Shown here: positions 1 to 55,517 of the stretch, piece by piece | Position numbering within the stretch: the first letter of the stretch is position 1 | How the letters are laid out: each line of letters starts with the position of its first letter | NCBI GenBank assembly: GCA_023144635.1 | Contig: JAGLFH010000037.1 | Coordinates: 26,489-90,488 of the forward strand | Source of the DNA: Candidatus Auribacterota bacterium | GTDB lineage: Bacteria > Auribacterota > JAFGBW01 > JAFGJP01 | Direction of reading: 5' to 3' | DNA: 64,000 nt | Made by a program: the position numbers and the translations under genes | The notes under the pieces: model-generated | What the model was told of the DNA's origin: nothing | The model's input: only the letters and a program-made list of their open reading frames with translations | Database searches by the model: none

Positions 1-256
1 TATCACCGTTTTCAATTGCAGCTGCCTGTTTACTGATAAGAGGATCTGCAACTTCTCTTCCAGATTTTATTCCCATAAATATACCACCGGAAAGAAGTGC
101 AACGAAAAGGATTATTATTACTATACATCCGCACCCTCCAATAAGTATCCATTTAAGCGGACTCTTTTTTTTAGCTGGCGGCTGACTAGGTGTTTGAATA
201 GGCGCTCCATTAGACGGTTCACTTGCAGGAATGGATGGATTCATTTCATTATTCAT
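1..256 (-). CDS. hypothetical membrane protein (5' end complete, 3' end beyond window start)
   Basis: ATG at 256-254 with GGAG-type SD about 6 nt upstream; at least 85 codons open to position 1; one predicted TM helix (WILIGGCGCIVIIILFVALLSGGIF). Absent from ORF track because truncated by the window edge. Confidence 0.4.
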   Translation of the reverse strand, partial: MNNEMNPSIPASEPSNGAPIQTPSQPPAKKKSPLKWILIGGCGCIVIIILFVALLSGGIFMGIKSGREVADPLISKQAAAIENGD

Positions 257-273
257 AAGACATCTCCTTTTTA

Positions 274-1371
274 TTAATTGTTAACTTTATGAAACTTCTT
301 TTGTGAACTTTTTTCTCTTTTTCCCCATGTGAGAAACTTTCTTTTAACCTGAAAGCCATTACTCTTGAGAAATTTCACCATACCAGTCTTTGTCACAAGA
401 TGCCCAAAGCCTATTGCAATAAAAGCATTTCCTTTATTAAGATAAGGTAAAACCGCTCTGTTCATACGGTGATTTCTTTCAGTATATATTTTTTCATATA
501 GTTCTTTAGTCTCATTTTTTGAAATGCTTTCGATTAAAACATCTTCGATCTTTTTTACGTTCCCGCTAACATAAAGGTTCTTTAACTGAACCAGTTCCTT
601 TTTAGTTTTAGGATCAACAGATTCTTCAAGAAAAGTTTCTTGAATTTTTGGAGAAAGCTCCTCAAAATAAGATACCTGATCATCTACAGTTTCAAGCCCG
701 ACAGTTTTTATTTTATTTTTCTGAGCCAGTTGTATTACATAAAGATCCATTGGCAGATCCAGTAAATTAATAAATTCCTGACTCTGGAACTGTTGTGCAA
801 GCATACCAAGGTACCATGGCTTACATTTATTAGTAAACTGGCGAGGTAATCCAAACTTTGAAAAGAACCTCATTACTTTTGAATATAATTGCTGTGAGAT
901 AGATGTTTTTAATGTCTTATTGCCTTTAAACTGACCTGCAACACTTATTTTATTAAGTGCTTCAGAAAAATCATTTATTTCTACGATTATGACATCACTT
1001 GATATTATTTTTTTTCTTAAATTCCTAAGATATGAACCCGGAAGAATGTGCATAGTTCCAAAAAGAATGCTTTTTTTTCCATTTTTTACTGCTTCCCAAT
1101 AACAGATCTTTTGTTCGTTTTGAGGAGAAGCTGACGAAAAATTAACAGGAAAAAAGAAAACAGATATTAAAAAGATAAACAAAAATACAATACGTGAAAT
1201 AAAAAAATGAACAAACTTGCGTTTACCCGCCTCCGCAACGGATATGCTTCGGCGAGATTTCACAGAGTAGATGCGTGAAGTGCCATGGGTGACTGCCTTA
1301 AACTTTGTCGAAGGGTTAGCTTGTGAGGTTTCATTATTATGTTGATTATTTAGCATCTTTAATTGATTCAT
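274..1371 (-). CDS. TraB/GumN family protein
   Basis: 365-aa ORF; motifs LFGTMHILPGSY and AIGFGHLVTKTGMVKFLKSNGFQV resemble the TraB/GumN family; N-terminal hydrophobic segment. Start may be a downstream Met (overlaps the upstream PilZ gene by 26 nt). Confidence 0.6.
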   Translation of the reverse strand: MNQLKMLNNQHNNETSQANPSTKFKAVTHGTSRIYSVKSRRSISVAEAGKRKFVHFFISRIVFLFIFLISVFFFPVNFSSASPQNEQKICYWEAVKNGKKSILFGTMHILPGSYLRNLRKKIISSDVIIVEINDFSEALNKISVAGQFKGNKTLKTSISQQLYSKVMRFFSKFGLPRQFTNKCKPWYLGMLAQQFQSQEFINLLDLPMDLYVIQLAQKNKIKTVGLETVDDQVSYFEELSPKIQETFLEESVDPKTKKELVQLKNLYVSGNVKKIEDVLIESISKNETKELYEKIYTERNHRMNRAVLPYLNKGNAFIAIGFGHLVTKTGMVKFLKSNGFQVKRKFLTWGKREKSSQKKFHKVNN

Positions 1372-1753
1372 GAATAAATTCTTCTAAAGTTATTTTATCT
1401 ATATCATCTATGTTTAAAAACTGAATTCCAATAGCATATTTTTTTTCTATTTCGTCAAGGCGCGACCAGACTACCTGTCCTAGAACATTTATGATCTTAC
1501 AGTCAGAATATATAGGTAAAGTTAATTTCATTTTTATATATTTTCCAGCCTTGATCCTTAAGGGAAGCTTTAGCTGAACACCGCCAGCACTTATATTGTT
1601 CGTATATGCATACTGCGAAAGGCCTTCTTCTTTAAGATTGTCTTTATCATATCCACATTCTTTAAAGCGTACAGGGAAAGAAAAAGGAATACGCGTGTAT
1701 TGCCTGCGTTCATTAATTGAATATGAATCATTCTTCTCGAGATTTTTATCCAT
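1346..1753 (-). CDS. PilZ domain protein (putative c-di-GMP binding)
   Basis: 135 aa; RRQYTRIPF ... NISAGGVQL ... GIQF matches the PilZ RxxxR / DxSxGG pattern. Confidence 0.65.
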   Translation of the reverse strand: MDKNLEKNDSYSINERRQYTRIPFSFPVRFKECGYDKDNLKEEGLSQYAYTNNISAGGVQLKLPLRIKAGKYIKMKLTLPIYSDCKIINVLGQVVWSRLDEIEKKYAIGIQFLNIDDIDKITLEEFIHESIKDAK

Positions 1754-1900
1754 TTCGACCCTTTTTATAATATAATGATACTATCTTTATTAAGATTATA
1801 TAGTCAACGAGAAATTTTTTGAATACTTTAATTTTTATTGTTTCAAAATACTCCTCATATTTATATAATCATATATATAAACACGCAACAGGAGCTTTTT

Positions 1901-2341
1901 ATGGATTCAAATATCAAAGTAATGATCGTTGATGACTCTCTTCCATTCAGGAGCATACTTTCATCTTTACTCTCAGAGCATCCCGATATAACTGTTGTCG
2001 GAACTGCTTACAGCGGCAAGATGGTCTTAAACAGAATTGAAGAAGAGGGAGCACCTGATATAGTTGTTCTGGATTATGAGATGCCGGAGATGGATGGATT
2101 TCAAACCCTAAAAGTAATAAAATCTAAATATCCACAGGTAAGCGTTATAATGCTGACTGCATATGCACAGCAACAAGACGGCCATTTTGTAAAAAGAGCT
2201 AAAGAGCTTAAAGCTGACGATATTCTTTATAAAGTACGTGATGGAAAATCCAGAGAAGAAAATATAGCTTATATTAAAAAAGAACTTATAAATAAAATTC
2301 TTGAATGTTATAAGGCTAAGTGGACACCAAAAAGGAAATAA
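1901..2341 (+). CDS. response regulator, stand-alone receiver domain (CheB-type receiver)
   Basis: ORF track starts at 1838; ATG at 1901 has GGAG SD 6 nt upstream and yields MDSNIKVMIVDDS...DIVVLDYEMPEMDG...VIMLTA, a typical receiver domain with no output domain. Confidence 0.75.
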   Translation: MDSNIKVMIVDDSLPFRSILSSLLSEHPDITVVGTAYSGKMVLNRIEEEGAPDIVVLDYEMPEMDGFQTLKVIKSKYPQVSVIMLTAYAQQQDGHFVKRAKELKADDILYKVRDGKSREENIAYIKKELINKILECYKAKWTPKRK

Positions 2342-2347
2342 TATTTT

Positions 2348-2479
2348 ATAAACAAAGCTTAATTATGGCTATAATCTCTTTAAAGAAATCAATAAAGTAG
2401 AATCAGATAATTACAAAGTCAGAGACTCCCTCGCATCTTTCTTATAATGAAATAGATCATTTTTTTTAAGCTTTGTTTA
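2348..2479. repeat. inverted-repeat-flanked element (15-bp arms ATAAACAAAGCTTAA / TTAAGCTTTGTTTAc)
   Basis: Arms at 2348-2362 and 2466-2479 enclose about 100 bp that includes a unit repeated again at 2839-2880. Confidence 0.4.
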
Positions 2480-2689
2480 CCTAAAGGCAAGCCCTCTGCA
2501 CTACATCTGCTTTGTTATCAAACATTTCCAGTATAAGAATACAGCACAATGTTTGATGCCTCACATCTGCAGCGCATTTGACTTGTAAAATACTATTTCC
2601 TTTAAATATTTCTTTCATAAATAAAGCTGAATAAGAAACATAAACTCTTTAATCTAAGTCAATTGTCGATAGTCCATAGACCATAGCCA

Positions 2690-2760
2690 GAAATCAGAGG
2701 TCAGAGAACAGAAGAAAAGAAAAAACAAGATACAAAATAAAAAAACATCAAACCAAATTT
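2690..2760. repeat. T-depleted purine-rich low-complexity tract
   Basis: cagaaatcagaggtcagagaacagaagaaaagaaaaaacaagatacaaaataaaaaaac; similar tracts at 25366-25660, 37290-37350, 50485-50625. Confidence 0.45.
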
Positions 2761-3156
2761 AAAATCTCAAACAAATACTATTTCCTTTAAATATCTTCTA
2801 CATAAACAAAGCTGAATTAGAAATCTAACCCTTTTGAGCAAATCAATAAAGTAAACCCAGACAATTACAAAGTCAGCCTTGCAGCACATAAAATTAAATT
2901 CCAATAATCAAAAAAACAAATAACAAAACAAAATCCTAAAAGCCGTCATTCGGGTTTCGTGAATGGAACGCAAGGGTAAAGCACCAAGAACACAGATACA
3001 AAATTTATTATTTATTCATAGGCGAAGGCGGGTGCTAACAATTTAAATAAATAAAAAAAAGAGGCAGAACTTGAATATCTGATAGGTGGAAGAAGAAGGG
3101 TCATCAATTCAAAAGTCCTGCCTCACACGGCCGCCATCCTTGGCCGCAAATCTATA

Positions 3157-3333
3157 TTAAACTATTAGTTGTTTGGCATTTTCATTTTTTTCAAATAAGG
3201 TCTGGGCTTTTGCCTCCTCTGATATATAAGTTAAAATAGATCCCATAAAAGCAATTAATGATATAAAAAAGCCTATATAAAGCAGCAGCTTATTAATAGA
3301 TATATTGATTTTTTTTTCAGCTATGTCCAGCAT
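3157..3333 (-). CDS. small hypothetical membrane peptide (58 aa)
   Basis: ATG at 3333-3331 with GGTGG-like SD; translation MLDIAEKKINISINKLLLYIGFFISLIAFMGSILTYISEEAKAQTLFEKNENAKQLIV has one TM helix; lies inside the 1.3-kb intergenic region; below the ORF-track size cutoff. Confidence 0.15.
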   Translation of the reverse strand: MLDIAEKKINISINKLLLYIGFFISLIAFMGSILTYISEEAKAQTLFEKNENAKQLIV

Positions 3334-3645
3334 ATATCCCCACCATTAATTAATTAACACTTTTATATATTAGTATTATACCATACTTTTCATAAAAAAT
3401 CAATTAAACCAGTAATTTTCATTGTTATGCCTTGCAATATAACCACTTATAGCTACTTTAAAATTATCTAGATATATTATATTATTTTACAAATAGTCAT
3501 ATTGTTGATTATTTTGCTTAACAATTAGTTTTTTAAGAGAAGCAGGCCCTAAACCTATTCTATTTTGCTTATTATAACGTGTTTTTTAAGCTATATAATG
3601 TTTGATAGCTTGAATTAAACAGGAAAATACTCTATATTATTTAGA

Positions 3646-4422
3646 ATGGCTTCTTTTTATTTTACTAATAGTATTAAATTCAAAATATGCTGTTTTTTTA
3701 TTGTAGCTTTAGTCTTGTTTACCGCACCTTTTACCTCCACTGCCAACAACACATTTCCTGTTAAGACCATTGTTATTGATCCTGGACACGGCGGAAAGGA
3801 CCAAGGAGCATCAGGCCCCAGCGGAATAGCTGAAAAAGAGGTAACTCTTGATATTTCCCTAAAACTTAAAAAAGAGCTGGAAAAAACTAAAAAATTCAAG
3901 GTTTTTATGACAAGGACTACCGACAAGTTTGTTTCTTTAAAGAAAAGGAAAAAAATTGCAAAGCGATATAAACCAGATGTTTTAATAAGCATACACTGTG
4001 ATGGTAATAAGGACAGAGATATAAATGGTACAGCAGTTTATATTCTTTCAAAAAAAGGCGAAAATTTTACTATTAAACGATCCCTCACACAGGGTGATTA
4101 TGTTTTTAACGGAAACTACATGAATAACTCACTTGCAGACGCAAATCATACCATGGCAAAAACCATGAAGCAAAGCCGTAAATTGGCTGATATAACATTA
4201 AAATATCTTCTGGCACAATTAGGAACAAAAGATATGCATGTAAGAAAAGCCGGCTTCAAAGTATTAAAGATCCTAGATGTTCCTTCAATACTTATTGAAG
4301 TGGCTTTTATTACAAACTGGTGGGAAGAAAAACAGCTTAAGAAAGATAAATTCCGTCAAAAAGCTGCGGTAGGTATAAGAAAAGCACTTCTTGAGTTCTT
4401 TAAAAATAATCCACATAATTGA
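3646..4422 (+). CDS. N-acetylmuramoyl-L-alanine amidase (Amidase_3 family)
   Basis: 258 aa with signal peptide; VIDPGHGGKDQGASG ... VFMTRTTD ... DVLISIHCD are the Amidase_3 zinc-site motifs. Confidence 0.85.
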   Translation: MASFYFTNSIKFKICCFFIVALVLFTAPFTSTANNTFPVKTIVIDPGHGGKDQGASGPSGIAEKEVTLDISLKLKKELEKTKKFKVFMTRTTDKFVSLKKRKKIAKRYKPDVLISIHCDGNKDRDINGTAVYILSKKGENFTIKRSLTQGDYVFNGNYMNNSLADANHTMAKTMKQSRKLADITLKYLLAQLGTKDMHVRKAGFKVLKILDVPSILIEVAFITNWWEEKQLKKDKFRQKAAVGIRKALLEFFKNNPHN

Positions 4423-5513
4423 AATTGGAAAAACCAATACACATTATATACAGCCTTTCCGGTGAAGGAAGAGGGCATGCAACCGTTGCTCTTGCCATTC
4501 ACAAAGAGCTTACCACCCGACTCCCTCTCCTTAAAATCCATTATTTTTGCGGTGGAAAAGCTTTTTATTTTTTAAACGAATCAGGATTGGATGTAACTAA
4601 AATACCTCACTTAAGTTACTCTTATAAAAAAGGTGCAGTAAAGCCTTTTTCTACCTTTTTAAAAAATTTAAGGATCATGCTCAACAAGAAAAACTTCATT
4701 TCAATAAAGGAACAAATCATAAGTTTTTCACCGGTACTTTGTTTATGCGATTTTGAATATTTTGTCCCAAAAATTATAAAGAAGCTGAAAATACCCCTTA
4801 TAAATATAAACCATCAGGGCATTATTACAGAAACAAAATACCCTGTACCTTTAAAAGAAAGATTAAATCACCTTTCCGCTGTTTTAGGAATACATATGAT
4901 CTCATCTCGCGCTCTAATCAACATCATTACTTCCTTTTTTATACCTCCAGTTAAAAAAAATAAAAAAAATAATATCTTTGTCGGACCAATAATAAGAGAA
5001 AACATTGAAAACTCTAGAAAGACAAACTTAAAAAAGGACTTTGTACTTGTTTATGTCATGGATGAATCTTTTAGCTGGATAGAACCTCTTCTTAGTGAAA
5101 TAACAGAAGAAAATTTTATTATTTCAGGGTTCCCAGCAGCAGATGGTAAAAAACATAAAAACATAATACACAAAAAAATAGATCCTGATGTTTTTCTTGA
5201 AGATCTAAAAGATTGTAAATGCGTTATTGCCACATCAGGGCACACTTTGATTGCCGAAGCACTTGCTCTCCAAAAACCTGTTTTAGCACTTTATCAACCC
5301 AATCAGTTCGAGCAATTTTTAAATGCACACTTTCTGGAAAATATGGGTTACGGTAAATCAATAGAAGCTAAAGGAAATATACTGCCTTCCATTAAAAACT
5401 TTTTGAAAAATATTCCAAGATTTGAAAAAAATATTAAAAACTGTTTTTCTACAGGTAATGCAAAAACAATAGATATCATAATAGAAGAAATAAGAAACAG
5501 AAAAGGCTATTAG
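4419..5513 (+). CDS. glycosyltransferase (MurG/GT28-like fold)
   Basis: 364 aa; N-terminal SGEGRGHATVALAIHKEL glycine-rich loop typical of GT-B (MurG-like) enzymes; TTG start forced by an upstream in-frame stop; overlaps amidase stop by 4 nt. Confidence 0.5.
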   Translation: MKLEKPIHIIYSLSGEGRGHATVALAIHKELTTRLPLLKIHYFCGGKAFYFLNESGLDVTKIPHLSYSYKKGAVKPFSTFLKNLRIMLNKKNFISIKEQIISFSPVLCLCDFEYFVPKIIKKLKIPLININHQGIITETKYPVPLKERLNHLSAVLGIHMISSRALINIITSFFIPPVKKNKKNNIFVGPIIRENIENSRKTNLKKDFVLVYVMDESFSWIEPLLSEITEENFIISGFPAADGKKHKNIIHKKIDPDVFLEDLKDCKCVIATSGHTLIAEALALQKPVLALYQPNQFEQFLNAHFLENMGYGKSIEAKGNILPSIKNFLKNIPRFEKNIKNCFSTGNAKTIDIIIEEIRNRKGY

Positions 5514-5622
5514 CCACAGCCTGTCTCGCCATAATCTACCAAAGGTGGACGAAGGCGGGGGGGAGACACATGAAAGCGTAGTGCGTGTGATGCGTTGAGA
5601 GTGGTGCGTTCAAGGTGCTTCC

Positions 5623-5666
5623 TTTCACGTGACCACGTTGACACGTGGAACGTGACTCACGTGGCG
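5623..5666 (+). repeat. CACGTG-rich 41-nt repeat module (copy 1)
   Basis: ctttCACGTGaccACGTtgacACGTGgaACGTGactcACGTggc; 41/41 identical to 37382-37422. Confidence 0.7.
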
Positions 5667-5774
5667 GAAGCAAATATTAATATTTCACTACGGAAAAGCA
5701 CGAAAAAAACTAAATTTAAAAAAACCTTTTCCTAGATTCCTGCTTCCGCAGGAATGACGTACGTTTTATACTTC

Positions 5775-5806
5775 TACACGGGCACAGCACGCTGTGCCCC
5801 TACTAC
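5775..5806 (+). repeat. REP-like hairpin unit (GTAG-palindrome on complementary strand)
   Basis: tacacGGGCACAGCacGCTGTGCCCctactac; 9-bp arms. Confidence 0.65.
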
Positions 5807-5811
5807 TTTTA

Positions 5812-5850
5812 CAGTGGTACGGGCAGGCGCCCCCGCGTACCGCTGCTCAC
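5812..5850 (+). repeat. REP-like hairpin unit, degenerate
   Basis: cagtGGTACGGGCAGGCGCCCCCGCGTACCgctgctcac; imperfect palindrome. Confidence 0.45.
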
Positions 5851-5918
5851 TTTTTATATTTTTCTTTTCTTTTTTATTTTATTTTAATGTCGTCGAAGAC
5901 ACCATTATTTTTATTTTT

Positions 5919-5950
5919 TTTACATGGGCGAAAGATTTTTCGCCCCTTGT
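5919..5950 (+). repeat. REP-like hairpin unit
   Basis: tacatGGGCGAAAgattTTTCGCCCct; core identical to 55368-55395. Confidence 0.7.
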
Positions 5951-6023
5951 ATGTTTTCACAATTCAGGTAACATCAGAGAAAATATGGGACGCAGATCAA
6001 TAGGATTAAGAGCTTTATTATCT

Positions 6024-6060
6024 TTCACACGGACAGGGACAAGCCCTGTCCCTACATACT
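6024..6060 (+). repeat. REP-like hairpin unit
   Basis: cacacGGACAGGGacaagCCCTGTCCctacatac. Confidence 0.7.
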
Positions 6061-6147
6061 TTTACTTTCTATGGTTCATGACTCTGTGTTCTCTGTGAAC
6101 GTGCTAAAAGTCCGCCGGGGCGGGTGGTGTGAAAGGCTTTTGCTTTT

Positions 6148-7659
6148 TTATCCATAATTTTTATCAATAAGACGCATAATATAATGTTTCTCTATTGCTA
6201 CAATCAGAACAACATGAAAAAAGATATAATGCAATGTATTCGTATCTACAAAAGAATGCACAAATGATCCTACGAAAACACCCAGTAAAGCTACTGATAT
6301 TAATTTTTCATCTTTTTTTAGTTTTTCTTTTGAAATAAATAAAAACATCTTATATATAAGAACAATGTAAAATATTAGTGCTGTCAGTCCTGCAAAAACA
6401 CCCATTTCCACTGAAAGGTTTAGAAAAAGATTATGAGCATGAAAATTATGAAATTCTATCTCTTTAGTAGCATACTTGAGCTTGTCAAAGAACAGCATCA
6501 TATCAATAATATAGGCTGGACCAAACTGTTTATAAAACTCCTCTCCCATATTCAAAAACCCTACTCCAAACAACGGAGAACGCTCTATCATTCTTAAAGA
6601 ATAATCCCATATCTGCCCCCTTCCGCTAAGCCCTGATTTTAAACGCAGAAGAAATATGATCTTCTCCAGATAAATCATAATAACGGCTACGACTGATGAT
6701 ACACCTGCAAAGACCATCTTCCACAAATGTTTAGGACGGACATATAGAAGCACTATCCCGCACCCTATCATCATATTAAGAAGCCCTCCTCTGCTAGAAG
6801 CAATAAGCTGTGCAAAAGCTATGCAAGCAAACAAAAAACCATAAAAGATCTTTAATGAGCGCTTCTTATTCACAAAAAACAAAACAAGGGCTATCGGCGC
6901 AATGGATGCAAGTACAGCACCAAAAATATTCTGATGAAAAAAAACAGAACTGGCTTTAAACTGTTTTAAATCACTTGCCTGCCAGCCAATTTTTAAAGCT
7001 ATATTCTGCCAACCTATGGGAACTATATAATCCTGAAGAAAAAGAAATTTTTGTTTTCTGACAACTATCCACTGCAATATACCGAAAAGAGCCAGAAAAG
7101 TAACGACCAGACAAAGGTTCCTAATAAATACTGAAACTTTCCTTTTTTCATTAAAATAATCACTTAAAGCTAGCATAAACAAAGGAAGAAGAAGCATTCC
7201 TAGGCCGCGAATAAAAGTCTTTGAGGGATTTTCTGCATTAATTGTTGATAAGAGGAAAAAAGTAACCAGAAGAAAAAGAAATTTTTTCGTAAACCCAAAA
7301 TATTTAAGACGAATCTTTACTATAGGCTCTGCATTTCTCTTTAATGACCATATGATACAAAATATAATTATGATTATAGGAGTCATGACCGGTATTGCAA
7401 AAGATATTTCATCAACAGGTGAGTTCTGAAAATACATCATTAGAAATATCAGCGCAACCGCAATATCAGGCTTAAAAAAGATAAGAGCTATTAAAAAAAC
7501 ACCACCAATAATAGCAATTGTATACAGATAGTTATAATTTGAAAAAAAGCTTATGCACCATCCTGCAAAAAGGATTATAAAAAAAAAGATTAAAAGTTTT
7601 TCAGTTTGATCTTTCAGTAAAATTTCTTCTACCCCACGTAAACAAGTTAATAAAAACAT
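6148..7659 (-). CDS. O-antigen ligase / Wzy-like polytopic membrane protein
   Basis: 503 aa, about 10-12 predicted TM helices plus a periplasmic loop, typical of the O-antigen ligase family; directly downstream of the Wzz-like gene. Confidence 0.55.
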   Translation of the reverse strand: MFLLTCLRGVEEILLKDQTEKLLIFFFIILFAGWCISFFSNYNYLYTIAIIGGVFLIALIFFKPDIAVALIFLMMYFQNSPVDEISFAIPVMTPIIIIIFCIIWSLKRNAEPIVKIRLKYFGFTKKFLFLLVTFFLLSTINAENPSKTFIRGLGMLLLPLFMLALSDYFNEKRKVSVFIRNLCLVVTFLALFGILQWIVVRKQKFLFLQDYIVPIGWQNIALKIGWQASDLKQFKASSVFFHQNIFGAVLASIAPIALVLFFVNKKRSLKIFYGFLFACIAFAQLIASSRGGLLNMMIGCGIVLLYVRPKHLWKMVFAGVSSVVAVIMIYLEKIIFLLRLKSGLSGRGQIWDYSLRMIERSPLFGVGFLNMGEEFYKQFGPAYIIDMMLFFDKLKYATKEIEFHNFHAHNLFLNLSVEMGVFAGLTALIFYIVLIYKMFLFISKEKLKKDEKLISVALLGVFVGSFVHSFVDTNTLHYIFFHVVLIVAIEKHYIMRLIDKNYG

Positions 7660-7672
7660 TCATTATAAGGAG

Positions 7673-9832
7673 TTACCTCCAGATCTTGTCAATAAAAGGA
7701 AATACTGGAATATGTGAACTTTTCTTTGCAATAAAAACATGAACATTTCGACCATGAACCAGTTTTGATTTAAAGAAAGCCTCTACATCTTCTATAGAAG
7801 TTTTATCATACTGAGTAACAAGAAGTGTCATATCTGCATGAGGTATGACTGTCTGCCAGTCGTCAGACAAATGAGTCGGTGTATTTTCAATAAATATCAC
7901 TTTATAATGACGCCTAAGAATAGGAATAAAATCTTTTAAATGCGCAAGGAGATAATATTCAACAGGAGAGACCCCCTTACCGCCTGCATAGAAATAATCT
8001 ATACCGTCTTTTGTTTTTTTTGTCATTATCTTTTCTAATTTATCTTCATCCACATCCTCTGCCTGAAAAGAATCCTCTTCATTTGAAGTCACTTCTTCAA
8101 GATTTGGATACTGAGCACTTCCCGATGTATTAAGATTTATTATCACCGGCTTAAGACCAAGTTTATTCAGGAAAACTGCCCAGTGATGCAACAAAAACGA
8201 CTTCCCTTCTTTACCGTTTATGCTGATAACTTGCACAACAAGTGAACTTCCATTCGTGTTTGAATATAACGTCCTTGTAAAATCTCTGATATTTCTTTCT
8301 GCAAATACTTTATGCCCCATATGTACAGACGGGAACTTCGGTACAGTACGCATTGAAGATATACCTTTTTGAAATTCAGCAAGATCTTCTTTTGACCTTA
8401 TCCTTCGTTGAGGAAGATCTATAAAAATTATGATAAAGAGACATACTGCACATGCAGAGCCCAGACACAATGCCAGAATGATAAATTTCCCTGATGTCTT
8501 TACAGGAGGCAAAGCAGGAGAAATTATTTTAACGACTTGAAGCTGCTCCTTATTCATTATTATTCTGTTCTTCTGCTGCTCCTTAATAAGGAACTGGTAA
8601 ACTTTTTGAGCAGTCGTAAGATCCATTTTGAACCTTACCATCTCCATTTCCAAAGCCGGAAGATCTTTTAATTTTCTCTCATAGATATCAACTATATCTT
8701 TGAGCGCTTCTTTCTTTGAGATCAATGCATATTTTTCGGATTCATTTTCAATAATACCTTTTAAAATATCCTGAATAAAAGGCTCTGTTGGAAGATTGTC
8801 ATAATTATCATTTACCATTCGCCTTATCTTATCTTTCATCTGTTTTTTCAGTTCATTGATCTGCCTGCGTATTGATTCAGCAGCACCAGGTGTAGCATAT
8901 CTATTTCGCTGTACGTTAAAATACTCATGTTCTAAAGAGACAAGTGCATTACGCGATTCTATAATAGATGAAGAATCAAACATCTCATCTGATTTTTTTA
9001 AATTTGATGCATATTTAGTAAACTTCTCTTTTAAGTTTTTGATAATTGCTGTCTTTTCTTTGATAGAGATTGCTACAATATTAAGCTCTGAATTATAACG
9101 GCTTAACGTTTCAAGATCTATTTTTGCTTCCAATGCAAGAGAATCGCTAAGTGCTATATTATATTCTCTTTGAAACCTTTCCATCTGGTCCTGAATATCA
9201 TGAAACTCACGTCGGGATCTTTCTGCTTCAGCAAGAACAAAGTCATACTGCAATTTTGCTTCACTATGCATAATATCAAGAAGTTTTTTTGAATACTCTG
9301 ATATGAGAACAGATACTATTTTATCGACCTTATCCCGGTAAGAATACTCTGCTTTTATTTTTGATATAAAAGTAAAAGGCTCATTTTTTATCTTTAGTAT
9401 ATTCTTTTTTAAAACTTTTATTTTTTTTCTTATTTTTCGCTCTTTTTTATCTTTAAGGTCTTTTTCAGTAGCATATTTGTCCATTATATTATCAAGCAGC
9501 CTTCCAACAGTAAGTTGAAAATAATCATATTTTATATCATCAACAAGATTTAGCTGCTCCACTACTTCACGAAGCACAGCATCGCTTTTTAAAAGAGCCA
9601 CATTAGTTTTCATATAGACAAGCGCACCCTGAGCTTCCATTGCAGGAGTTTCAACTGATGTTAAAGAAAGATTAGGGCTGATCATTATTTCAGCTTCTGA
9701 GCGATATTTGGGAAGAAAAATTATTTTAAGGAAAAATAATCCTGTAAAAAAAATAAAAATTAATGTAAAAATAAAAAATCTTTTAAAAAAGATCTCTGTT
9801 AATCTGGTAACAATTTTTTTAAATTCTTTCAT
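7673..9832 (-). CDS. polysaccharide chain-length determinant (Wzz/GumC-like) with C-terminal degenerate P-loop domain
   Basis: 719 aa; N-terminal TM, long coiled-coil periplasmic region, second TM, then a C-terminal domain with a degenerate Walker-A-like segment (SINGKEGKS). Confidence 0.55.
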   Translation of the reverse strand: MKEFKKIVTRLTEIFFKRFFIFTLIFIFFTGLFFLKIIFLPKYRSEAEIMISPNLSLTSVETPAMEAQGALVYMKTNVALLKSDAVLREVVEQLNLVDDIKYDYFQLTVGRLLDNIMDKYATEKDLKDKKERKIRKKIKVLKKNILKIKNEPFTFISKIKAEYSYRDKVDKIVSVLISEYSKKLLDIMHSEAKLQYDFVLAEAERSRREFHDIQDQMERFQREYNIALSDSLALEAKIDLETLSRYNSELNIVAISIKEKTAIIKNLKEKFTKYASNLKKSDEMFDSSSIIESRNALVSLEHEYFNVQRNRYATPGAAESIRRQINELKKQMKDKIRRMVNDNYDNLPTEPFIQDILKGIIENESEKYALISKKEALKDIVDIYERKLKDLPALEMEMVRFKMDLTTAQKVYQFLIKEQQKNRIIMNKEQLQVVKIISPALPPVKTSGKFIILALCLGSACAVCLFIIIFIDLPQRRIRSKEDLAEFQKGISSMRTVPKFPSVHMGHKVFAERNIRDFTRTLYSNTNGSSLVVQVISINGKEGKSFLLHHWAVFLNKLGLKPVIINLNTSGSAQYPNLEEVTSNEEDSFQAEDVDEDKLEKIMTKKTKDGIDYFYAGGKGVSPVEYYLLAHLKDFIPILRRHYKVIFIENTPTHLSDDWQTVIPHADMTLLVTQYDKTSIEDVEAFFKSKLVHGRNVHVFIAKKSSHIPVFPFIDKIWR

Positions 9833-10048
9833 AGCCCGTTTTCTGTAATGTATTATTGTTATTTAAATATAGTTTAACATAATACATATAAAATGTCAAC
9901 TTCTAATTAATATTTAATATATACCTATCTCCCTGAGTTACAACATAATAACTATTATTTCATATATTGATCAAATAAACACTACTATGCATATTTTTGA
10001 TACTTACATGAATTTTTGAAGAAAATGAAAAAAAATCAAAAATACAAC

Positions 10049-10711
10049 TTATCTTGAACGGGATTTTTCTATGTTTTTTTTGATTACCGAAAAATTTGAT
10101 GTCGAAGAACCTACCATATGCCCTTTTTTATCATATACGCTGACACTGGGTATAGATGTTATCTTGTGCTGTTTTGCAACAGGACTACCCCAATTATCAA
10201 TGTTTATCTTTCTTAAGATAACATCATCATATTTTTTTATTAGATCTTCAAGCTTAGGGCCCAACACTTTACACGGACCGCACCAATCAGCATAAAAATC
10301 AAAGACAACAACGTACCCCCTTACTGTATTACTTTTAATGTTTACCTTGCTGCCCTTTGATATGGTTTTTATTCTTGCAACATTACCTAATAATTTCTTT
10401 CTTGGCTGTGGACTTTCTTTTAAGCCTGGATCAGCTTCTTTTGCTTTAGAACCAGTTTTTTTTGACTGTATATAGACTCTTTTTATTTCTGAAACATTGA
10501 CTTTTTCTGTTTTATTATCACTCATCTTTACAAGATATCTTTTACCGTTAAAATACAATAACTTTCCCTTAATGACCTGACTGTCCTTTTTTATTATCAT
10601 GACAATCTGCTCAAACCCTTTGTTTTCACTGAAATAAATATTCTCTGAAAAATAAGAGCCTATTATGATTATCAGCAATACTACCATAATGAAAATTAAG
10701 AAATTCTTCAT
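10049..10711 (-). CDS. thioredoxin-domain protein, membrane anchored
   Basis: 220 aa; N-terminal TM; C-terminal FDFYADWCGPCK thioredoxin active site (WCGPC); AGGAAA SD. Confidence 0.7.
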   Translation of the reverse strand: MKNFLIFIMVVLLIIIIGSYFSENIYFSENKGFEQIVMIIKKDSQVIKGKLLYFNGKRYLVKMSDNKTEKVNVSEIKRVYIQSKKTGSKAKEADPGLKESPQPRKKLLGNVARIKTISKGSKVNIKSNTVRGYVVVFDFYADWCGPCKVLGPKLEDLIKKYDDVILRKINIDNWGSPVAKQHKITSIPSVSVYDKKGHMVGSSTSNFSVIKKNIEKSRSR

Positions 10712-10775
10712 ATTTTTTCCTGTGTTTTATATTAAATATTTTACTATAAATAACTTTTAGATTAAAGCTAAAGGA

Positions 10776-11474
10776 TCAATTGTCATACAGAAATGATATC
10801 CTCTTCTTTTTTCTGAAAAACGACAGCAAAAAGACCCCCATAATAAATCCTCCTATGTGAGCCCACCAAGCAACGCCTCCTGATGATAATGAATCTTGCG
10901 AAGACAAAGCTGAAAATATCTGTATAAGTAACCATAACCCAAAATAAAAAAATGCAGGAACTTCTAAAAAATAAGGTATGAAAAAAACAGGAACAAGGAC
11001 AACTATTCTTGCCCTTGGAAATATTAGCATATAAGCCCCCATGACAGCTGCTATTGCCCCTGAAGCACCTATTATAGGAACAGCTGAATGAATATTAAAT
11101 AAAAAATGTGCCATATTTGCAATAACTCCACAAAGTATATAAAAAACCAGAAACCCAACATGACCTACATGATCTTCCACATTGTCTCCAAAAAGCCAAA
11201 GCGTCCACATGTTCACAAAAAAATGCATCCACCCACCATGAAGGAACATATTTGTAATAAACGGTAATGGATTATACTGCAGAAGAGCTCTTTCCATTGC
11301 CCAATTAAGATCAATATAGCGGGCAGGAACCATACCGTAAATCGCAAAAAACCTCTGTAAAGCATCCTTTGAGAGTGATTTTTCATACAGAAAAACTAGA
11401 GCACTTACAATTATGATAGCCCCTGTCATAAGAGGAGGTTTTTGATGAGGGTTTATATCATTAAGTGGTATCAT
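10776..11474 (-). CDS. rhomboid family intramembrane serine protease
   Basis: 232 aa polytopic; GASGAIAAVMGAY (catalytic Ser motif GxSG) and AHIGGFIMG (catalytic His). Confidence 0.85.
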   Translation of the reverse strand: MIPLNDINPHQKPPLMTGAIIIVSALVFLYEKSLSKDALQRFFAIYGMVPARYIDLNWAMERALLQYNPLPFITNMFLHGGWMHFFVNMWTLWLFGDNVEDHVGHVGFLVFYILCGVIANMAHFLFNIHSAVPIIGASGAIAAVMGAYMLIFPRARIVVLVPVFFIPYFLEVPAFFYFGLWLLIQIFSALSSQDSLSSGGVAWWAHIGGFIMGVFLLSFFRKKKRISFLYDN

Positions 11475-11595
11475 ATCTTTAATTTTCTCTTACATTTACT
11501 ATAAGCTAACATCTTTCTAAATCAAATAATAATTATTATTATTGACCAAAACGTTTTCAAACATAATAATTACTCTAAATTTAAAGGAGGGCTTA

Positions 11596-11700
11596 ATGAG
11601 GGTAATTGAAGATGATTTTGAAGATGACCTAGGGGATGATTTTGAAGATAATGAAACAGATGATGATGCTGAAGATGATGATAACTATGACTATGATTAA
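11596..11700 (+). CDS. small highly acidic peptide (34 aa)
   Basis: ATG 11596 preceded by GGAGG with 5-nt spacer; MRVIEDDFEDDLGDDFEDNETDDDAEDDDNYDYD; followed by a perfect 16-bp hairpin plus T5 at 11751-11791. Coding status unproven. Confidence 0.3.
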   Translation: MRVIEDDFEDDLGDDFEDNETDDDAEDDDNYDYD

Positions 11701-11750
11701 TCTTTTGAAGACGAAGATAATCAAGATTAATGAGTGAATTTAATAATATA

Positions 11751-11791
11751 CTACAAAGGACAGCATTCAAATGCTGTCCTTTGTAGTTTTT
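11751..11791 (+). terminator. intrinsic terminator-like hairpin (16-bp perfect stem, 4-nt loop, T5)
   Basis: ctacaaaggacagcat-tcaa-atgctgtcctttgtag followed by ttttt; ends 8 nt before the rlmN ATG. Confidence 0.6.
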
Positions 11792-11799
11792 AGGTCACC

Positions 11800-12837
11800 A
11801 TGGAAAAAAATGACATAAAACTTATTGATACTGAAAAGCTAAAAGCCATTATGACATCAAATGGTTTTAAGGCATATAGAGCCTCCCAGATACAACACGC
11901 AATATGGAAAGAAGGCGCAAATACCTTTGAGATGATGCCCATTCCTTTAAACCTTAAAGATTTTCTTAAAAAACATTTCTATATTTATACTTGTAAGGTC
12001 ATAAATAAAAGTTCCAGTAAGGATGGAACCATTAAATTTCTTTTAGAATTTTTGAATAAAACATATATAGAAACAGTTTTTATTCCGTCATCATCACACA
12101 ACACACAATGCATATCATCCCAATCAGGATGCAAAATGAGATGTCGTTTTTGCGCAACAGGTGAAAGTGGTTTTAAACGAGATCTTTCAGCCGGAGAAAT
12201 AATAGAACAGATCCTGATAATACAGAAATTAACCGGAGAAAGTATCGGAAATATTGTTGTTATGGGAATGGGAGAGCCTTTTGAAAATTATAACAATTTA
12301 ATGCAGGCGATCCGTATCATAAATTCAAAACATGCTCTTAACATAGGAGCAAGAAGAATCACTGTTTCAACTGTAGGGATCCCAGAAGCGATAAAACGCT
12401 TTGCTGATGAAAACATACAGGCACGGCTTTCGATATCACTTCATGCAAGCGAAAATTCACTTCGCTCTCAAATAGTACCCATAAACAAAAAATATCCAAT
12501 AGAAGATATATTAAAAGCCTGTCGTTATTATAATAAAAAAGCAAAAAAATATGTCAGCTTTGAATACATCCTTTTAAAAGGGATAAATGACTCTGAAAAA
12601 CATGCAATATCACTTTCAAAAAGACTAAAGGGCTGGAAATGCAGAGTAAATTTAATTCCTTACAACCCTGTAAATTCATCAGAATTTATGCGATCAGATA
12701 ATGGTCAAATAAAAACTTTCAGTAACATCCTTAAAAAGTTCGGCATCAATACCACCATAAGAAAAGAAAGAGGCGTGGACATAAAAGCAGCTTGCGGCCA
12801 GTTAAAAAGTTCTTTTTTGAAAAACAAAAATACTTAA
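11800..12837 (+). CDS. rlmN: 23S rRNA (adenine2503-C2)-methyltransferase RlmN, radical SAM
   Basis: 345 aa; FKAYRASQ N-terminal motif, CxxxCxxC radical-SAM cluster (CKMRCRFCATG), GMGEP motif. Confidence 0.9.
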   Translation: MEKNDIKLIDTEKLKAIMTSNGFKAYRASQIQHAIWKEGANTFEMMPIPLNLKDFLKKHFYIYTCKVINKSSSKDGTIKFLLEFLNKTYIETVFIPSSSHNTQCISSQSGCKMRCRFCATGESGFKRDLSAGEIIEQILIIQKLTGESIGNIVVMGMGEPFENYNNLMQAIRIINSKHALNIGARRITVSTVGIPEAIKRFADENIQARLSISLHASENSLRSQIVPINKKYPIEDILKACRYYNKKAKKYVSFEYILLKGINDSEKHAISLSKRLKGWKCRVNLIPYNPVNSSEFMRSDNGQIKTFSNILKKFGINTTIRKERGVDIKAACGQLKSSFLKNKNT

Positions 12838-12907
12838 CCAATATTTTGCCTGGTCTTAATTTTTATAAGACTTTATAATATGTTCAATTAAATAAAAGTA
12901 ATAAAAT

Positions 12908-13717
12908 ATGATAAAAAAACGTTTAAATGTTCATTTATTACAATTTTCAATTTCCTGGGAAAAAAGGGAAAAAAATTTTAAAAAAGTCTTATCGATTTTA
13001 AAGAAAAACCGCATTAAAAAAGGAAGCATTATCTGCCTTCCGGAATATTTCGCAACAGGGTTTACATTGAATTCGCGTAACCTTGCCGAAGATGAAAAAG
13101 GACCAACATCATCATTTTTATCCTTCCTTGCCAAAGAATATAGCTCTTTTGTAATAGGCTCATCAATAATAAAAACAAGTAATAAAAAAAGGCCAACCAA
13201 CAGTGCACTTGTCTTTTCTTCCAATGGGAAAAGAATTGTTCGTTATGACAAGTCTCATCTTTTTACACCAGGCAAAGAAAAAACATTTTATTCAAGAGGC
13301 AAAAATATTTCTACATTTAAGGTAAAAGGGAAATTGTTTGCAGTTGTTATCTGTTTTGACTTAAGATTTCCTGAACTATTCAGGATACTTTATGAGAAAA
13401 ATGTAACCGGTATATTTGTAATTGCAAACTGGCCGGAGACAAGACATCACCACTGGGAAACACTTCTTCGAGCAAGAGCAATTGAAAATCAGTGCTTTAT
13501 TTTTGGAGTAAATAGAAAAGGTTCCTCGCCTTACCAAAACTATAAAGGCGGTACTTCAATTATAGGCCCTTTTGGAAATATTATAGAAAGTTCAGGCAGG
13601 AAAAATATGATTTCTGCTGAAATAGATATTAACAATGCAGATAATGAGAAAAAAAGATTTTCAATAAAGAATGATAGGGCTTTTGATACTTATAAAAAAT
13701 ATAATCCATATAAGTGA
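12908..13717 (+). CDS. carbon-nitrogen hydrolase (nitrilase superfamily)
   Basis: 269 aa; catalytic Cys context ICFDLRFPE and overall Nit/omega-amidase-like layout. Confidence 0.8.
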   Translation: MIKKRLNVHLLQFSISWEKREKNFKKVLSILKKNRIKKGSIICLPEYFATGFTLNSRNLAEDEKGPTSSFLSFLAKEYSSFVIGSSIIKTSNKKRPTNSALVFSSNGKRIVRYDKSHLFTPGKEKTFYSRGKNISTFKVKGKLFAVVICFDLRFPELFRILYEKNVTGIFVIANWPETRHHHWETLLRARAIENQCFIFGVNRKGSSPYQNYKGGTSIIGPFGNIIESSGRKNMISAEIDINNADNEKKRFSIKNDRAFDTYKKYNPYK

Positions 13718-13733: not shown

Positions 13734-13790
13734 AGTTAATTGGTTTACTTGTTAAATAGTTAACTGGTTCAAGGAGCACTGAAGCGCGAT
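13734..13790 (+). repeat. intergenic repeat module (CAGTTAATTGGTT...GTTAACTGGTTCAAGGAGCACT)
   Basis: About 55-nt module also at 50633-50690 (+) and 46503-46557 (-). Confidence 0.6.
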
Positions 13791-13846: not shown

Positions 13847-13885
13847 GATCCCGCGGTTAAACACGCGGGATGACATACGTTTTGG
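13847..13885 (+). repeat. hairpin repeat module (GATCCCGCG...CGCGGGATGACATACGTTTT)
   Basis: 8-bp stem atcccgcg/cgcgggat; second copy at 43281-43316 has the same stem and a different loop. Confidence 0.55.
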
Positions 13886-25365: not shown

Positions 25366-25499
25366 TACAGACACAAGACTCAAGCAAAACCTCAGAATCC
25401 AAAGACCTAAAACAAAGAAGAAATAACAAAAGGCACAAGACTCAAAAGCGTTGTTCGTCGTTCGTGATTCGGGGTTCGTGAATTGAGCGCTCCGCGATA

Positions 25500-25660
25500 T
25501 AAAATAAAAAGCAGAGAACAGAAAAAAATCGAGGGATGAAGGACGAGGGACAAAAAAACAGAAGATGCACGATACAAGATACACGATAAATAAAAGCAAA
25601 AGACTTTAGACTCAAGGGGAAAAGCACAAGATAGAAAAGAATAATAAAGAATAAATGTCC
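25500..25660. repeat. T-depleted purine-rich low-complexity tract
   Basis: agcagagaacagaaaaaaatcgagggatgaaggacgagggacaaaaaaacagaagatgcacgatacaagatac...; several GGA motifs. Confidence 0.45.
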
Positions 25661-25723
25661 ATGGACCGTGGTCAATAGACCATAGTCAGAAAAAAACAAA
25701 AGAAAAATTAAAAATAAATAAAT

Positions 25724-25767
25724 CACCCCGCAGGAGTAACCAAGTAACACCTACGGGGTGGTTTTTT
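25724..25767 (+). terminator. terminator-like hairpin repeat (CCACCCCGCAGG...CCTACGGGGTGG plus T6)
   Basis: caccccgcagg-agtaaccaagtaaca-cctacggggtgg-tttttt; second copy 47979-48027. Confidence 0.45.
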
Positions 25768-25776
25768 ATACTACGC

Positions 25777-25810
25777 TTTACAGCGGGCGCAGGCTAGCGG
25801 CGCCCCTACT
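25777..25810 (+). repeat. REP-like hairpin unit
   Basis: cagcGGGCGCaggctagcgGCGCCCctactcac. Confidence 0.6.
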
Positions 25811-25872
25811 CACATTCTACTTTTTATGTTTTACAAGGGCGGTTCGCTTATTTTACACCAAATCCTTGCCCT

Positions 25873-25919
25873 CATGAACCACGTGGGGTTCATGACCGTA
25901 AACCCTACGTGGTTTACGG
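25873..25919 (+). repeat. double-hairpin repeat module (CATGAACC...GGTTCATG / CCGTAAACC...GGTTTACGG)
   Basis: Related copies with the same stems and different loops at 33927-33961 and 46408-46431. Confidence 0.5.
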
Positions 25920-25967
25920 CTATCGCAGATCCGCCAGCGCTTTGAGGAGGACTCACTTTTTATTTTG
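25920..25967 (+). repeat. intergenic repeat module (CTATCGCAGATYCGCCAGCRCTTTGRGGAGGACT)
   Basis: Three copies in window (25920, 28432, 41733 inverted), each preceded by a GC hairpin and containing GGAGGACT followed by a T-run. Confidence 0.6.
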
Positions 25968-26169
25968 TTGTTTTTCACTTGAAACCTCGAATCCTTGAAC
26001 TCTTTTTTTCTACTTTCTACAATTACAATTGACAAATAAAATACTGATTGTTAACATAAAAATTCAACTGATTTATTAGTATTTATTTTTACGTAAAAAA
26101 ATTTATAATTTACTGCTGTCAAATAAGTTATTTCAACTTCTAGTAAATTTATTCTCGGAGGGAAACATA

Positions 26170-28483: not shown

Positions 28484-28520
28484 GTTTTACAAGGGCGGAT
28501 TTAGAATCCGCCCCTACATA
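28484..28520 (+). repeat. REP-like hairpin unit
   Basis: acaaGGGCGGATTtagAATCCGCCCctacata; identical core at 55528-55548. Confidence 0.75.
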
Positions 28521-28597
28521 CCTTTTATGTTTTTTGCTTTTATTTTTTTCTGTCTTCTGGTTTTTCCAATCTGTGTGGTCTGTGCAACTTTTATTTA

Positions 28598-55515: not shown

Positions 55516-55517
55516 TA

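Follow-up and report, generated by a model that had tools for sequence, protein, structure and literature searches.

Layout of the interval

We analysed positions 2342-3645 of a 64,000-nt stretch of DNA (the window) from a metagenome-assembled genome (MAG) of a Candidatus Auribacterota bacterium. The interval lies between the gene for a stand-alone receiver-domain response regulator (1901-2341, plus strand) and an amidase gene (3646-4422), in a window of low GC content, about 32%. An earlier annotation from the letters alone (the original prediction) had rightly picked it out as the longest spacer in the window: on the map of open reading frames (ORFs) it measures 1304 nt if a small ORF inside it is ignored, and the second-longest spacer, at 25366-26169, about 800 nt. 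The same prediction had treated it as a single 1.3-kb non-coding region, which it is not, because about 350 nt belong to the transcription unit of a small membrane protein and about 240 nt to a divergent promoter region. We read the interval as a composite of these two parts and a convergent spacer, not as one element, and put the probability of this reading at roughly 0.55. Transcript boundaries throughout are predicted from sequence. The parts of the composite, with the signals of the small gene and of the amidase, are as follows.

3053-3403, minus strand: small-gene transcription unit, with promoter, leader, ORF, two hairpins in the 3' untranslated region (UTR) and a U8 tract
3398-3403, minus strand: -35 hexamer TTGATT (TTGATT-17-TATAAT with TG, 10/12 matches)
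3375-3380, minus strand: -10 hexamer TATAAT (TGnTATAAT) of the sigma-70-type promoter of the small gene
3334-3374, minus strand: 5' UTR of the small gene (about 41 nt), including the conserved GTTAATTAATTAAT, alignable in the window, L008/L012 and L007
3157-3333, minus strand: 58-codon ORF for a single-pass membrane protein (hypothetical protein KAI43_08410 in the NCBI MAG)
3127-3147, minus strand: hairpin 1, stem GCGGCC/GGCCGU with conserved loop AAGGAUGGC, from folding and comparison
3061-3124, minus strand: hairpin 2, a long stem with a large pyrimidine loop CCCUUCUUCUUCCACCU, folding energy -21 kcal/mol
3053-3060, minus strand: U8 tract that completes an intrinsic terminator, read from the sequence
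3404-3645: divergent promoter region between the small gene and the amidase
3610-3638, plus strand: amidase promoter TTGAAT-17-TATATT, whose -10 ends 7 nt ahead of the ATG at 3646
2342-3052: convergent spacer between the regulator gene and the small gene

The relatives used for comparison were obtained through protein look-ups. Four loci (L007, L008, L011 and L012) have an amidase or small protein about 51-69% identical to that of the window; L009/L010 match in both the amidase (65%) and the regulator (63%); L013-L017 carry regulator orthologues at 72-73% identity; and the P0007 contig, with no DNA on record, has an amidase at 57%. The amidase of the window matches exactly a protein recorded for an NCBI MAG of a Candidatus Aureabacteria bacterium. 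Four metagenome contigs with the amidase are 100% identical to the window across 1800-3800 and thus give no comparative signal.

A conserved gene for a small membrane protein

The 58-codon ORF with a transmembrane helix that the original prediction had marked as possible at 3157-3333 on the minus strand is present, and conservation in relatives argues that it is a genuine gene. It is called as a gene in the ENA, Logan and NCBI records. Full-length homologues stand upstream of the amidase, with position and orientation kept, in L008 and L012 (57 aa each) and in L009/L010 (75 aa), and N-terminal fragments of a homologue are found in L007 and L011. At the equivalent place the P0007 contig carries a minus-strand gene of 59 aa, matched by position only and missed by the profile search. 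The ORFs of 57-75 aa from four lineages share the core IGxxISLxxFxxSxxxY, with 10 invariant columns in the transmembrane core. Diverged relatives thus retain an open frame at this position, with conserved residues, as expected of protein-coding DNA, and by this comparative evidence the small ORF is a real conserved gene. The protein belongs to no Pfam family; in a profile search of 5.8 billion proteins its family amounted to just three clusters, and a search of JGI metagenomes with the small-protein alignment gave no confirmed locus. Judged from these searches, the small membrane protein is restricted to this lineage.

The promoter block of the small gene is conserved in L008, L007 and L009, while the rest of the divergent intergenic DNA is unalignable between lineages. 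A closer pair is formed by L008 and L012, which are 91% identical across 503 nt, with the differences unevenly spread: 31/126 positions differ upstream, 1/76 in the promoter and 5' UTR (the 5' UTR itself being identical), 8/174 in the ORF and 5/31 after the stop codon. Seven codons of the ORF are changed, four non-synonymously and three synonymously, and any dN/dS estimate rests on these seven. The leader also contains an 8-9-codon upstream ORF that begins at the conserved TTAATTAATG (window 3334-3362, minus strand; L012:183-212) and overlaps the main start codon; it is present in the window and in L008/L012, and absent in L007.

A structured and strongly conserved 3' untranslated domain

Hairpin 2 and the U8 tract form an intrinsic terminator about 30 nt past hairpin 1 and about 95 nt past the stop codon of the small gene. 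This is the only intrinsic terminator in 2342-3645 when both strands are scanned, and a standard scan overlooks it because the loop of hairpin 2, about 17 nt, exceeds the size limit of such scans. Both hairpins were found in L008/L012, and hairpin 2 also in L009, with folding z-scores of -3.0, -6.0 and -6.1 in the three lineages. The stem of hairpin 1 covaries, from GCGGCC/GGCCGU in the window to CAUGGC/GCCAUG in L008/L012, with the loop AAGGAUGGC unchanged. In hairpin 2 the closing pair is A-U in the window and G-C in L012, and an inner pair is A-U in the window, U-A in L009 and U-G in L012; the loop sequence CUUCUUCCACCU / UCUCCACCUCC is retained across lineages, with CCACCU kept. The MAFFT alignment of the hairpin domain puts the stem one base out of register and did not serve for automated counting of pairs. 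L012 and L009 have a separate canonical terminator past the hairpins on the small-gene strand; together with the U8 tract of the window, these terminators assign the hairpins to the sense strand of the small gene.

The strongest sign of constraint comes again from L008 and L012, which show 0/96 differences in the hairpin domain as against 16-25% in its flanks; at a flank rate of about 0.2 we calculate the chance of this outcome as about 5e-10. The 3' domain is therefore more strongly constrained than the coding sequence. In this pair of genomes a non-coding mRNA domain is thus under purifying selection beyond its neutral flanks, the pattern of a regulatory 3' UTR.

In the genome of the window the transcript would end at hairpin 2 and the U8 tract, and the small-gene mRNA may be more than a message. 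The conserved pyrimidine loop of hairpin 2 (CUUCUUCCACCU) resembles an anti-Shine-Dalgarno sequence, a likeness that would suggest an RNA with a regulatory or dual function. Among possible roles are pairing of the loop with sequences of the Shine-Dalgarno type, protein binding by the domain, and stabilisation of the mRNA. Dual-function RNAs and 3'-UTR-derived small RNAs known from other bacteria include RNAIII with delta-haemolysin, SgrS/SgrT, SR1/SR1P and CpxQ. As in dual-function RNAs, a tiny ORF is followed here by a structured, highly conserved 3' domain, and the terminator-proximal hairpin shows a C/U-rich loop able to pair with Shine-Dalgarno sequences. Unlike them, the present RNA has no sequence or Rfam kinship with the known cases and is known from sequence alone, and its peptide is a membrane protein kept beside a cell-wall amidase gene. 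The locus would provide a concrete example, from an uncultivated candidate phylum, of a tiny membrane-protein mRNA whose 3' untranslated domain is more conserved than its coding part, and that difference in conservation makes it a candidate dual-function RNA.

A 10-mer from the loop of hairpin 1, A(A/G)GATGGCGG (ARGATGGCGG), occurs three times in the window as against 0.03 expected. The copy at 3131-3140 (minus strand) is the conserved hairpin 1 loop itself; the others are at 46477-46486 and 50819-50828 (both plus strand), and a further copy lies in L002 at about 1295. Every copy is intergenic, and two are in predicted hairpin loops.

The amidase promoter

A promoter of the form TTGAA(T/A)-17-TATATT precedes the amidase in five lineages (window 3610-3646; L008:890-930; L007:460-500; L009:9965-10003; L011:320-359), with the TATATT-like -10 element always 7-8 nt from the ATG. 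This short distance implies that the amidase mRNA is leaderless or nearly so, and on the promoter's position we regard it as probably leaderless.

A second candidate RNA structure in the convergent spacer

The convergent spacer contains a potential three-way junction, M, at its regulator end, together with three repeat units (c1, c2 and c3), two degenerate arrays with 7-base periodicity and a member of a heptamer word family.

2331-2603, minus strand: three-way junction M, from folding, with P1 (2331-2351/2583-2603), P2 (2349-2362/2466-2479) and P3 as the third arm
2485-2585, minus strand: P3, an imperfect hairpin of about 100 nt, from folding and homology to L008
2466-2479, strand not assigned: 3' arm of P2, half of a 14-nt perfect inverted repeat
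2348-2422, plus strand: repeat unit c1, which contains the P2 5' arm (2349-2362), from self-comparison
2588-2700, plus strand: repeat unit c2, from self-comparison
2773-2876, plus strand: repeat unit c3, from self-comparison
2644-2771, plus strand: degenerate array with 7-base periodicity forming the tail of c2, GTCGATA GTCCATA GACCATA GCCAGAA ATCAGAG GTCAGAG AACAGAA ...
2899-2944, plus strand: degenerate A/C-rich array with 7-base periodicity forming the tail of c3
2942-2999, plus strand: member of a TTCG-type heptamer word family (GCCGTCATTCGGGTTTCGTGAATGGA...GAACACAGA) with dispersed copies

The 15-bp inverted repeat of the original prediction is real and perfect, although its exact length is 14 nt (2349-2362 / 2466-2479) and it encloses 103 nt; a perfect inverted repeat of at least 14 nt arose in 1 of 300 shuffles of 2320-3060. 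The hairpin stem atcaaacatt/aatgtttgat also exists, with 10 bp at 2517-2526/2549-2558. On its own it is at chance level, since about half of the shuffles contain a perfect inverted repeat of at least 10 nt; it is the tip of the P3 hairpin. P3 folds at -40.1 kcal/mol on the minus strand (z -3.9), as against a z of -0.8 on the plus strand. M as a whole, about 275 nt long and overlapping the last 11 nt of the response-regulator ORF, likewise folds better on the minus strand (-89.2 kcal/mol, z -6.8) than on the plus strand (-55.9 kcal/mol, z -2.7); its minus-strand fold comprises 87 Watson-Crick and 14 G-U pairs, with no A-C 1x1 mismatch. Within M, 2466-2479 and 2586-2603 together are a 31/32 inverted copy of 2331-2362 (the last regulator codons and the start of c1), split by the 106-nt P3 segment.

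Comparison with one relative supports P3. Window positions 2431-2526 and beyond are homologous to L008:36-290, with orientation and side relative to the small-gene hairpins kept (Smith-Waterman score 30, shuffles giving 11.7 +/- 1.5; nhmmer E = 1.3e-3 for L008 searched against all fetched sequence, and E = 2e-6 with the spacer as query), though neutral intergenic DNA of the two lineages is unalignable. The two outer stems of P3 have 15 pairs, eight of which differ between the window and L008, three by compensatory double changes and five by one-sided changes between Watson-Crick and G-U pairs. All these outer pairs are standard on the minus strand in both sequences; the plus strand would have three A-C mismatches in the window and two in L008. 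For this comparison stem 3 was shifted one base by hand. The minimum-free-energy fold of L008 itself gives the P3 stems and favours the minus strand (z -2.5 vs -0.7). Because the L008 contig ends, the comparison covers P3 and not P1 and P2.

The evidence that P3 is a conserved minus-strand RNA structure is good but thin, and we regard P3, with its compensatory changes, and M around it as a second candidate structured RNA. M, or at least P3, would form as RNA on the minus strand, the strand of the small gene. There is no terminator between the small gene and the element in L008, where the two would share a transcript, and the M element would then belong to a long structured 3' region of the small-gene transcript.

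Intergenic palindromes of the REP/BIME type act as 3' stabilisers of mRNAs. M resembles them as a set of stable stem-loops right after a stop codon in a convergent spacer, but it occurs in one copy, is far larger, with its three-way junction of about 275 nt, has no GTAG tail, and is more stable on the antisense strand of the adjoining regulator gene. Two other ideas about M were discarded. A conserved minus-strand micro-ORF over P3 (MFDNKADVVQRACL vs MTDNEVDVVQSARL... in L008) is unconvincing, with codon-position differences of 4:3:6 and a frame that stop codons and 1-nt gaps interrupt in the window. A shufflon-like exchange of the regulator C-terminus was considered as well: inversion between the P1 arms keeps K-R-K-stop, and the regulator tail is intact and within the variation of its orthologues.

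Repeat units

The direct repeats reported in the original prediction are real (BLAST E about 1e-12, with none expected in shuffles). They had been taken for two units recurring in rearranged order, and are instead three direct copies, c1-c3, of a single unit of about 100 nt, at 79-80% pairwise identity. Unit c2 has a 15-nt insertion and a diverged 3' half, and c2 with its tail and c3 with its tail resemble a tandem duplication of about 185-190 nt, 64% identical overall. The units have no secondary structure in common on either strand; no promoter of at least 9/12 with a normal spacer is conserved across them, and no terminator lies past any of them. A profile of the unit (nhmmer) found only c1-c3 in the window and the fetched relatives, c2 and c3 being absent from L008 and all other relatives examined. 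A 22-mer of the unit had no match in JGI metagenomes, nor had its consensus in viral contigs, and the unit matched nothing in plasmids and phages.

The suggestion of one or more non-coding RNA genes in the original prediction is supported in that the interval contains conserved RNA structure, namely the 3'-UTR hairpins of the small gene and the candidate P3 with its compensatory changes against one relative. It is not supported for the dispersed repeats, which have no convincing promoter, no terminator and no fold in common on either strand. The Rfam scan proposed in the same place leaves the region unexplained by any Rfam family: with Rfam 15 the whole window has no match at the gathering threshold, and at E up to 10 positions 2200-3800 give five sub-threshold matches only (14-24 bits, with cut-offs of 40-48). 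A tRNA/tmRNA scan found none. A replication origin was also dismissed, there being no DnaA box (TTATCCACA at up to 1 mismatch) in 2342-3645 and no switch in the cumulative GC skew, which falls monotonically through the region.

A gene-order breakpoint

In L013, L014/L015 and L009 a convergent gene of 172-174 aa lies 6-130 nt past the regulator, and in L013 it is followed by genes for proteins of 122 aa and 107 aa and by MaoC. The P0007 contig has RF-1 and MaoC directly next to the small gene and the amidase. The lineage of the window instead has the block MaoC, RF-1, 122 aa and 171 aa inverted and upstream of DUF4864-TraB-PilZ-regulator, and has the 719-aa and Wzy genes inverted downstream of a glycosyltransferase. 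The gene order in the window and L002 thus differs from that in L009, L013-L015 and the P0007 contig, and the different order on the regulator side indicates that the junction of regulator and small gene is new; in relatives the regulator is followed by the four-gene block, which here has been inverted and relocated. The order of the thioredoxin-like, rhomboid and RlmN genes has changed too (window 1-13717 compared with L009, L013 and the P0007 contig).

Similarity between L008 and L012 ends completely right after hairpin 2, and a small palindromic element (GGATCCCT...AGGGATGACAA) is oppositely oriented in the two; both features mark the site as plastic. None of the spacers downstream of the regulator orthologues in L013-L017 resembles the window spacer. 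Pseudogene remnants were looked for in the spacer by tblastn with the L009 genes from this position and rejected: there was no match at E <= 0.01, and a very permissive rerun gave noise.

7-base-periodic arrays

The tails of c2 and c3 belong to a wider class of sequence. In the intergenic DNA of the window identity at lag 7 is 0.338, as against about 0.31 at neighbouring lags, and coding DNA has no such peak; high-scoring period-7 positions number 342 vs 17 in shuffles and are nearly all intergenic. The stretches 2644-2771 and 2899-2944 are among about 19 arrays in the window. The arrays are not made of near-perfect copies, as the unit drifts along them: Tandem Repeats Finder lists rows of period 7 at 11 other loci (matches 73-84%) and none inside 2342-3645, where the nearest rows have periods 8 and 20. 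CAGA and ATAG arrays similar to 2644-2771 lie at 25541-25732, 37297-37346, 50486-50540, 50846-50961 (minus strand) and L002:975-1175; copies of the TTCG family of 2942-2999 lie at 25448-25495, 33785-33830 and 33883-33925, with weaker ones at 46344 and 48247 (minus strand). The period-7 signal is found also in the Omnitrophota MAG contig L005 and is absent from a closer relative, L009. In about 14 of 17 cases the purine-rich strand of an array matches the sense of the preceding gene.

Periodic arrays in general occur at window positions 25389-25732, 28516-28567, 33723-33993, 34169-34230, 37243-37346, 43090-43158, 50486-50540, 50846-50961 and 55637-55692, at L002:975-1175 and in L005 (five arrays), in the word families CAGA, ATAG, TTCG, GAGT and AGATAC. 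Downstream of the gene that ends at 25365, a stretch of 360 nt is periodic over nearly its whole length and closes with a canonical terminator.

Heptanucleotide repeats known elsewhere include the cyanobacterial STRR, TAACTGA of Beggiatoaceae and GGGAATC of Xanthomonas. Unlike these, the present arrays are degenerate, each heptamer differing from its neighbour at 1-3 bases with a drifting motif; they use several word families (CAGA, ATAG, TTCG, GAGT); and they mostly trail genes, with the purine-rich strand in sense orientation. Two papers, both citing Mrazek 2007, describe heptanucleotide repeats as over-represented in bacterial intergenic DNA and as the commonest long class of simple sequence repeats in bacteria, and attribute them to polymerase slippage (PMC4679880, PMC4692102). 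The arrays share with that class a tandem 7-nt periodicity, confined here to intergenic DNA and present at many loci in one genome, and an origin by slippage is plausible for them as well. What is unusual about them is their degeneracy and the bias of the purine-rich strand toward the sense of the preceding gene. We found no literature report of such heptamer repeats for Candidatus Aureabacteria or Omnitrophota.

The three repeat units are most likely products of local duplication. Units and arrays alike would be products of local duplication and replication slippage at a rearrangement junction, without sequence-specific function, probably serving just as an A/C-rich, unstructured 3' tail into which transcription of the regulator gene continues. 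The repeats, noticed first, are thus probably the least functional part of the interval. Long spacers of this genome that seem empty consist of a limited vocabulary of 7-base-periodic words and small palindromic repeats, which is relevant to the annotation of Aureabacteria and Omnitrophota MAGs, and these words may, speculatively, be part of the reason that contigs of this lineage break off in intergenic DNA.

Alternative explanations

Several points weigh against the composite reading. The transcript boundaries on which it depends are all predicted ones; covariation in hairpins 1 and 2 comes from two or three lineages, and that in P3 from comparison with one other sequence, L008. The surplus of G-U pairs on the minus strand could in part be a consequence of how rich the plus strand is in A and C, and not of selection. 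In the window a strong terminator and about 470 nt lie between the small gene and M, no good minus-strand promoter was found ahead of M (the best candidates have a 19-nt spacer), and L012, close to L008, lacks M within 235 nt of the hairpins, so that M is dispensable or movable. The anti-Shine-Dalgarno likeness of the pyrimidine loop is a resemblance only, GGAG/GAGG standing upstream of only about 30% of the genes in the window. The units c1-c3, still about 80% identical while their tails are barely alignable, could mean that selection acts on the units.

Of the more specific alternatives we consider one for M unlikely but the least so: M would have no function, being an inverted duplication of the 3' end of the regulator gene that was later split by a palindromic insertion, and its likeness to L008 would be decaying ancestral sequence. 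The 31/32 inverted copy of 2331-2362, broken by exactly 106 nt, fits such a history, as does the absence of M beside the hairpins in L012; any DNA inverted repeat yields a strong folding z-score, and the skewed plus-strand composition pushes mismatches toward G-U on the minus strand. Yet the block shared with L008 scores about 12 standard deviations above shuffles though other intergenic DNA of the two is unalignable, all 8 of the 8 changed outer P3 pairs keep minus-strand pairing (3 by double change), and the junction of P2 arm and P3 is already in L008, so the arrangement is old. The original prediction had also offered a decayed mobile element; the left part would then be the remnant of a miniature inverted-repeat transposable element (MITE) or an insertion sequence (IS) bounded by inverted repeats. 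Terminal inverted repeats of the kind are there (the perfect 14-nt repeat around about 100 nt, with nested palindromes, and a 19/21 inverted repeat), the site is at a rearrangement breakpoint, and other small palindromic families are clearly mobile in the lineage; but the junctions show no target-site duplication, no transposase remnant was found, and neither the unit nor P3 has a second copy in the window, the fetched loci, JGI metagenomes, viral contigs, plasmids or phages, these searches including about 70 kb of this genome. The idea does not survive well, and we rate it the least probable of all.

A doubtful alternative makes c1-c3 tandem genes for small regulatory RNAs (sRNAs), or one long sponge RNA titrating an RNA-binding protein, each unit giving AYAAAG three times and then NAG words 7 nt apart. 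Parallels would be the tandem sRNA genes NsiR1 of Nostoc and LhrC1-4 of Listeria, and the sponge RNAs CrcZ and CsrB. Like the NsiR1 and LhrC arrays, the units are several diverged direct copies of a unit of about 100-190 nt in one intergenic region; three copies have stayed about 80% identical while their tails diverged, the plus strand, rich in A and C, is predicted to lack structure, L008 may retain the 3' half of c1 (CAATAAAG...AATTACA), and about 14 of 17 arrays have their purine-rich strand in the sense of the gene before them. A convergent spacer requires no promoter DNA, moreover, so 700 nt is unexpectedly long. Unlike the known clusters, however, c1-c3 lack any recognisable promoter, terminator or common fold of their own, no promoter being conserved across the units and no terminator following any; there is no Rfam match, c2 and c3 are not in L008 or other relatives, and no candidate binding protein is known. 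More improbable still is the broader proposal that arrays and units are transcribed 3'-UTR platforms for an oligomeric RNA-binding protein that would read the NAG words, spaced by four bases, which the arrays often contain, in the manner of the periodic RNA recognition known for HutP and TRAP; if true, such platforms would control termination or mRNA fate genome-wide in Aureabacteria and Omnitrophota and would not be slippage debris. For the small gene itself the rival is a type I toxin, with the 3' hairpins or the 5' leader targeted or templated by an antisense antitoxin RNA, as in TxpA/RatA, BsrG/SR4 and Fst. A protein of fewer than 60 aa with one transmembrane helix, untranslated mRNA parts far more conserved than the ORF, a tiny and lineage-restricted family, and an anti-Shine-Dalgarno-like loop that could occlude translation would all suit a toxin. 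We nevertheless give this only a slim chance: synteny with the amidase is stable across lineages with 65-69% amidase identity, and probably the 57% P0007 contig too (by position only), which toxin-antitoxin loci do not usually show; hairpin 2 of L012 directly adjoins a bidirectional terminator, with no space for a convergent antisense promoter; and the window has no plus-strand promoter upstream of the hairpins.

Other dispersed repeats in the window

Elements resembling REP sequences, a G+C-rich hairpin followed by GCCCCTAC(ATA), or GTAGGGGC on the other strand, are abundant elsewhere in the window. The 8-mer has eight exact copies (5796, 14006, 25802, 28510, 43203 on the minus strand, 48106, 55389 and 55545). 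Six of them (5796, 14006, 25802, 28510, 43203 and 48106) are outside clear genes, that at 5796 being in a doubtful 114-aa ORF; those at 55389 and 55545 are within a 102-aa ORF (55304-55612) that is itself perhaps spurious. A second palindromic family, TCCCGCG..CGCGGGATGACAAC(G)TTTT with short or long loops, occurs at 13850-13885, 43282-43315 and 50797-50852 in the window, at about 1270-1340 in L002, at L008:150-180 and at L012:694-733; its opposite orientation in the 91%-identical L008 and L012 indicates that it is probably mobile.

An identical 31-mer of CACGTG-type palindromic words, CACGTGACCACGTTGACACGTGGAACGTGAC, is found in two intergenic regions (5626-5656 and 37386-37416). Paired AGTTAATTGGTT / AGTTAACTGGTT words lie at 13734-13777, 50634-50669 and 46513-46548 (minus strand), and also at 33757, 33813, 37273 and 5608; the pair leads into GTTCAAGGAGC at 13.7 and 46.5 kb and into the variant AAAGGAACGC at 50.6 kb, and GTTCAAGGAGC also terminates several heptamer arrays. 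The intrinsic terminators at 25722-25768 and 47978-48025, both with a large loop, are nearly identical (CCCCGCAGGAGTAA.CAA..ACACCTACGGGGTGGT and a run of T), which suggests that terminators may themselves be dispersed repeats in this genome.

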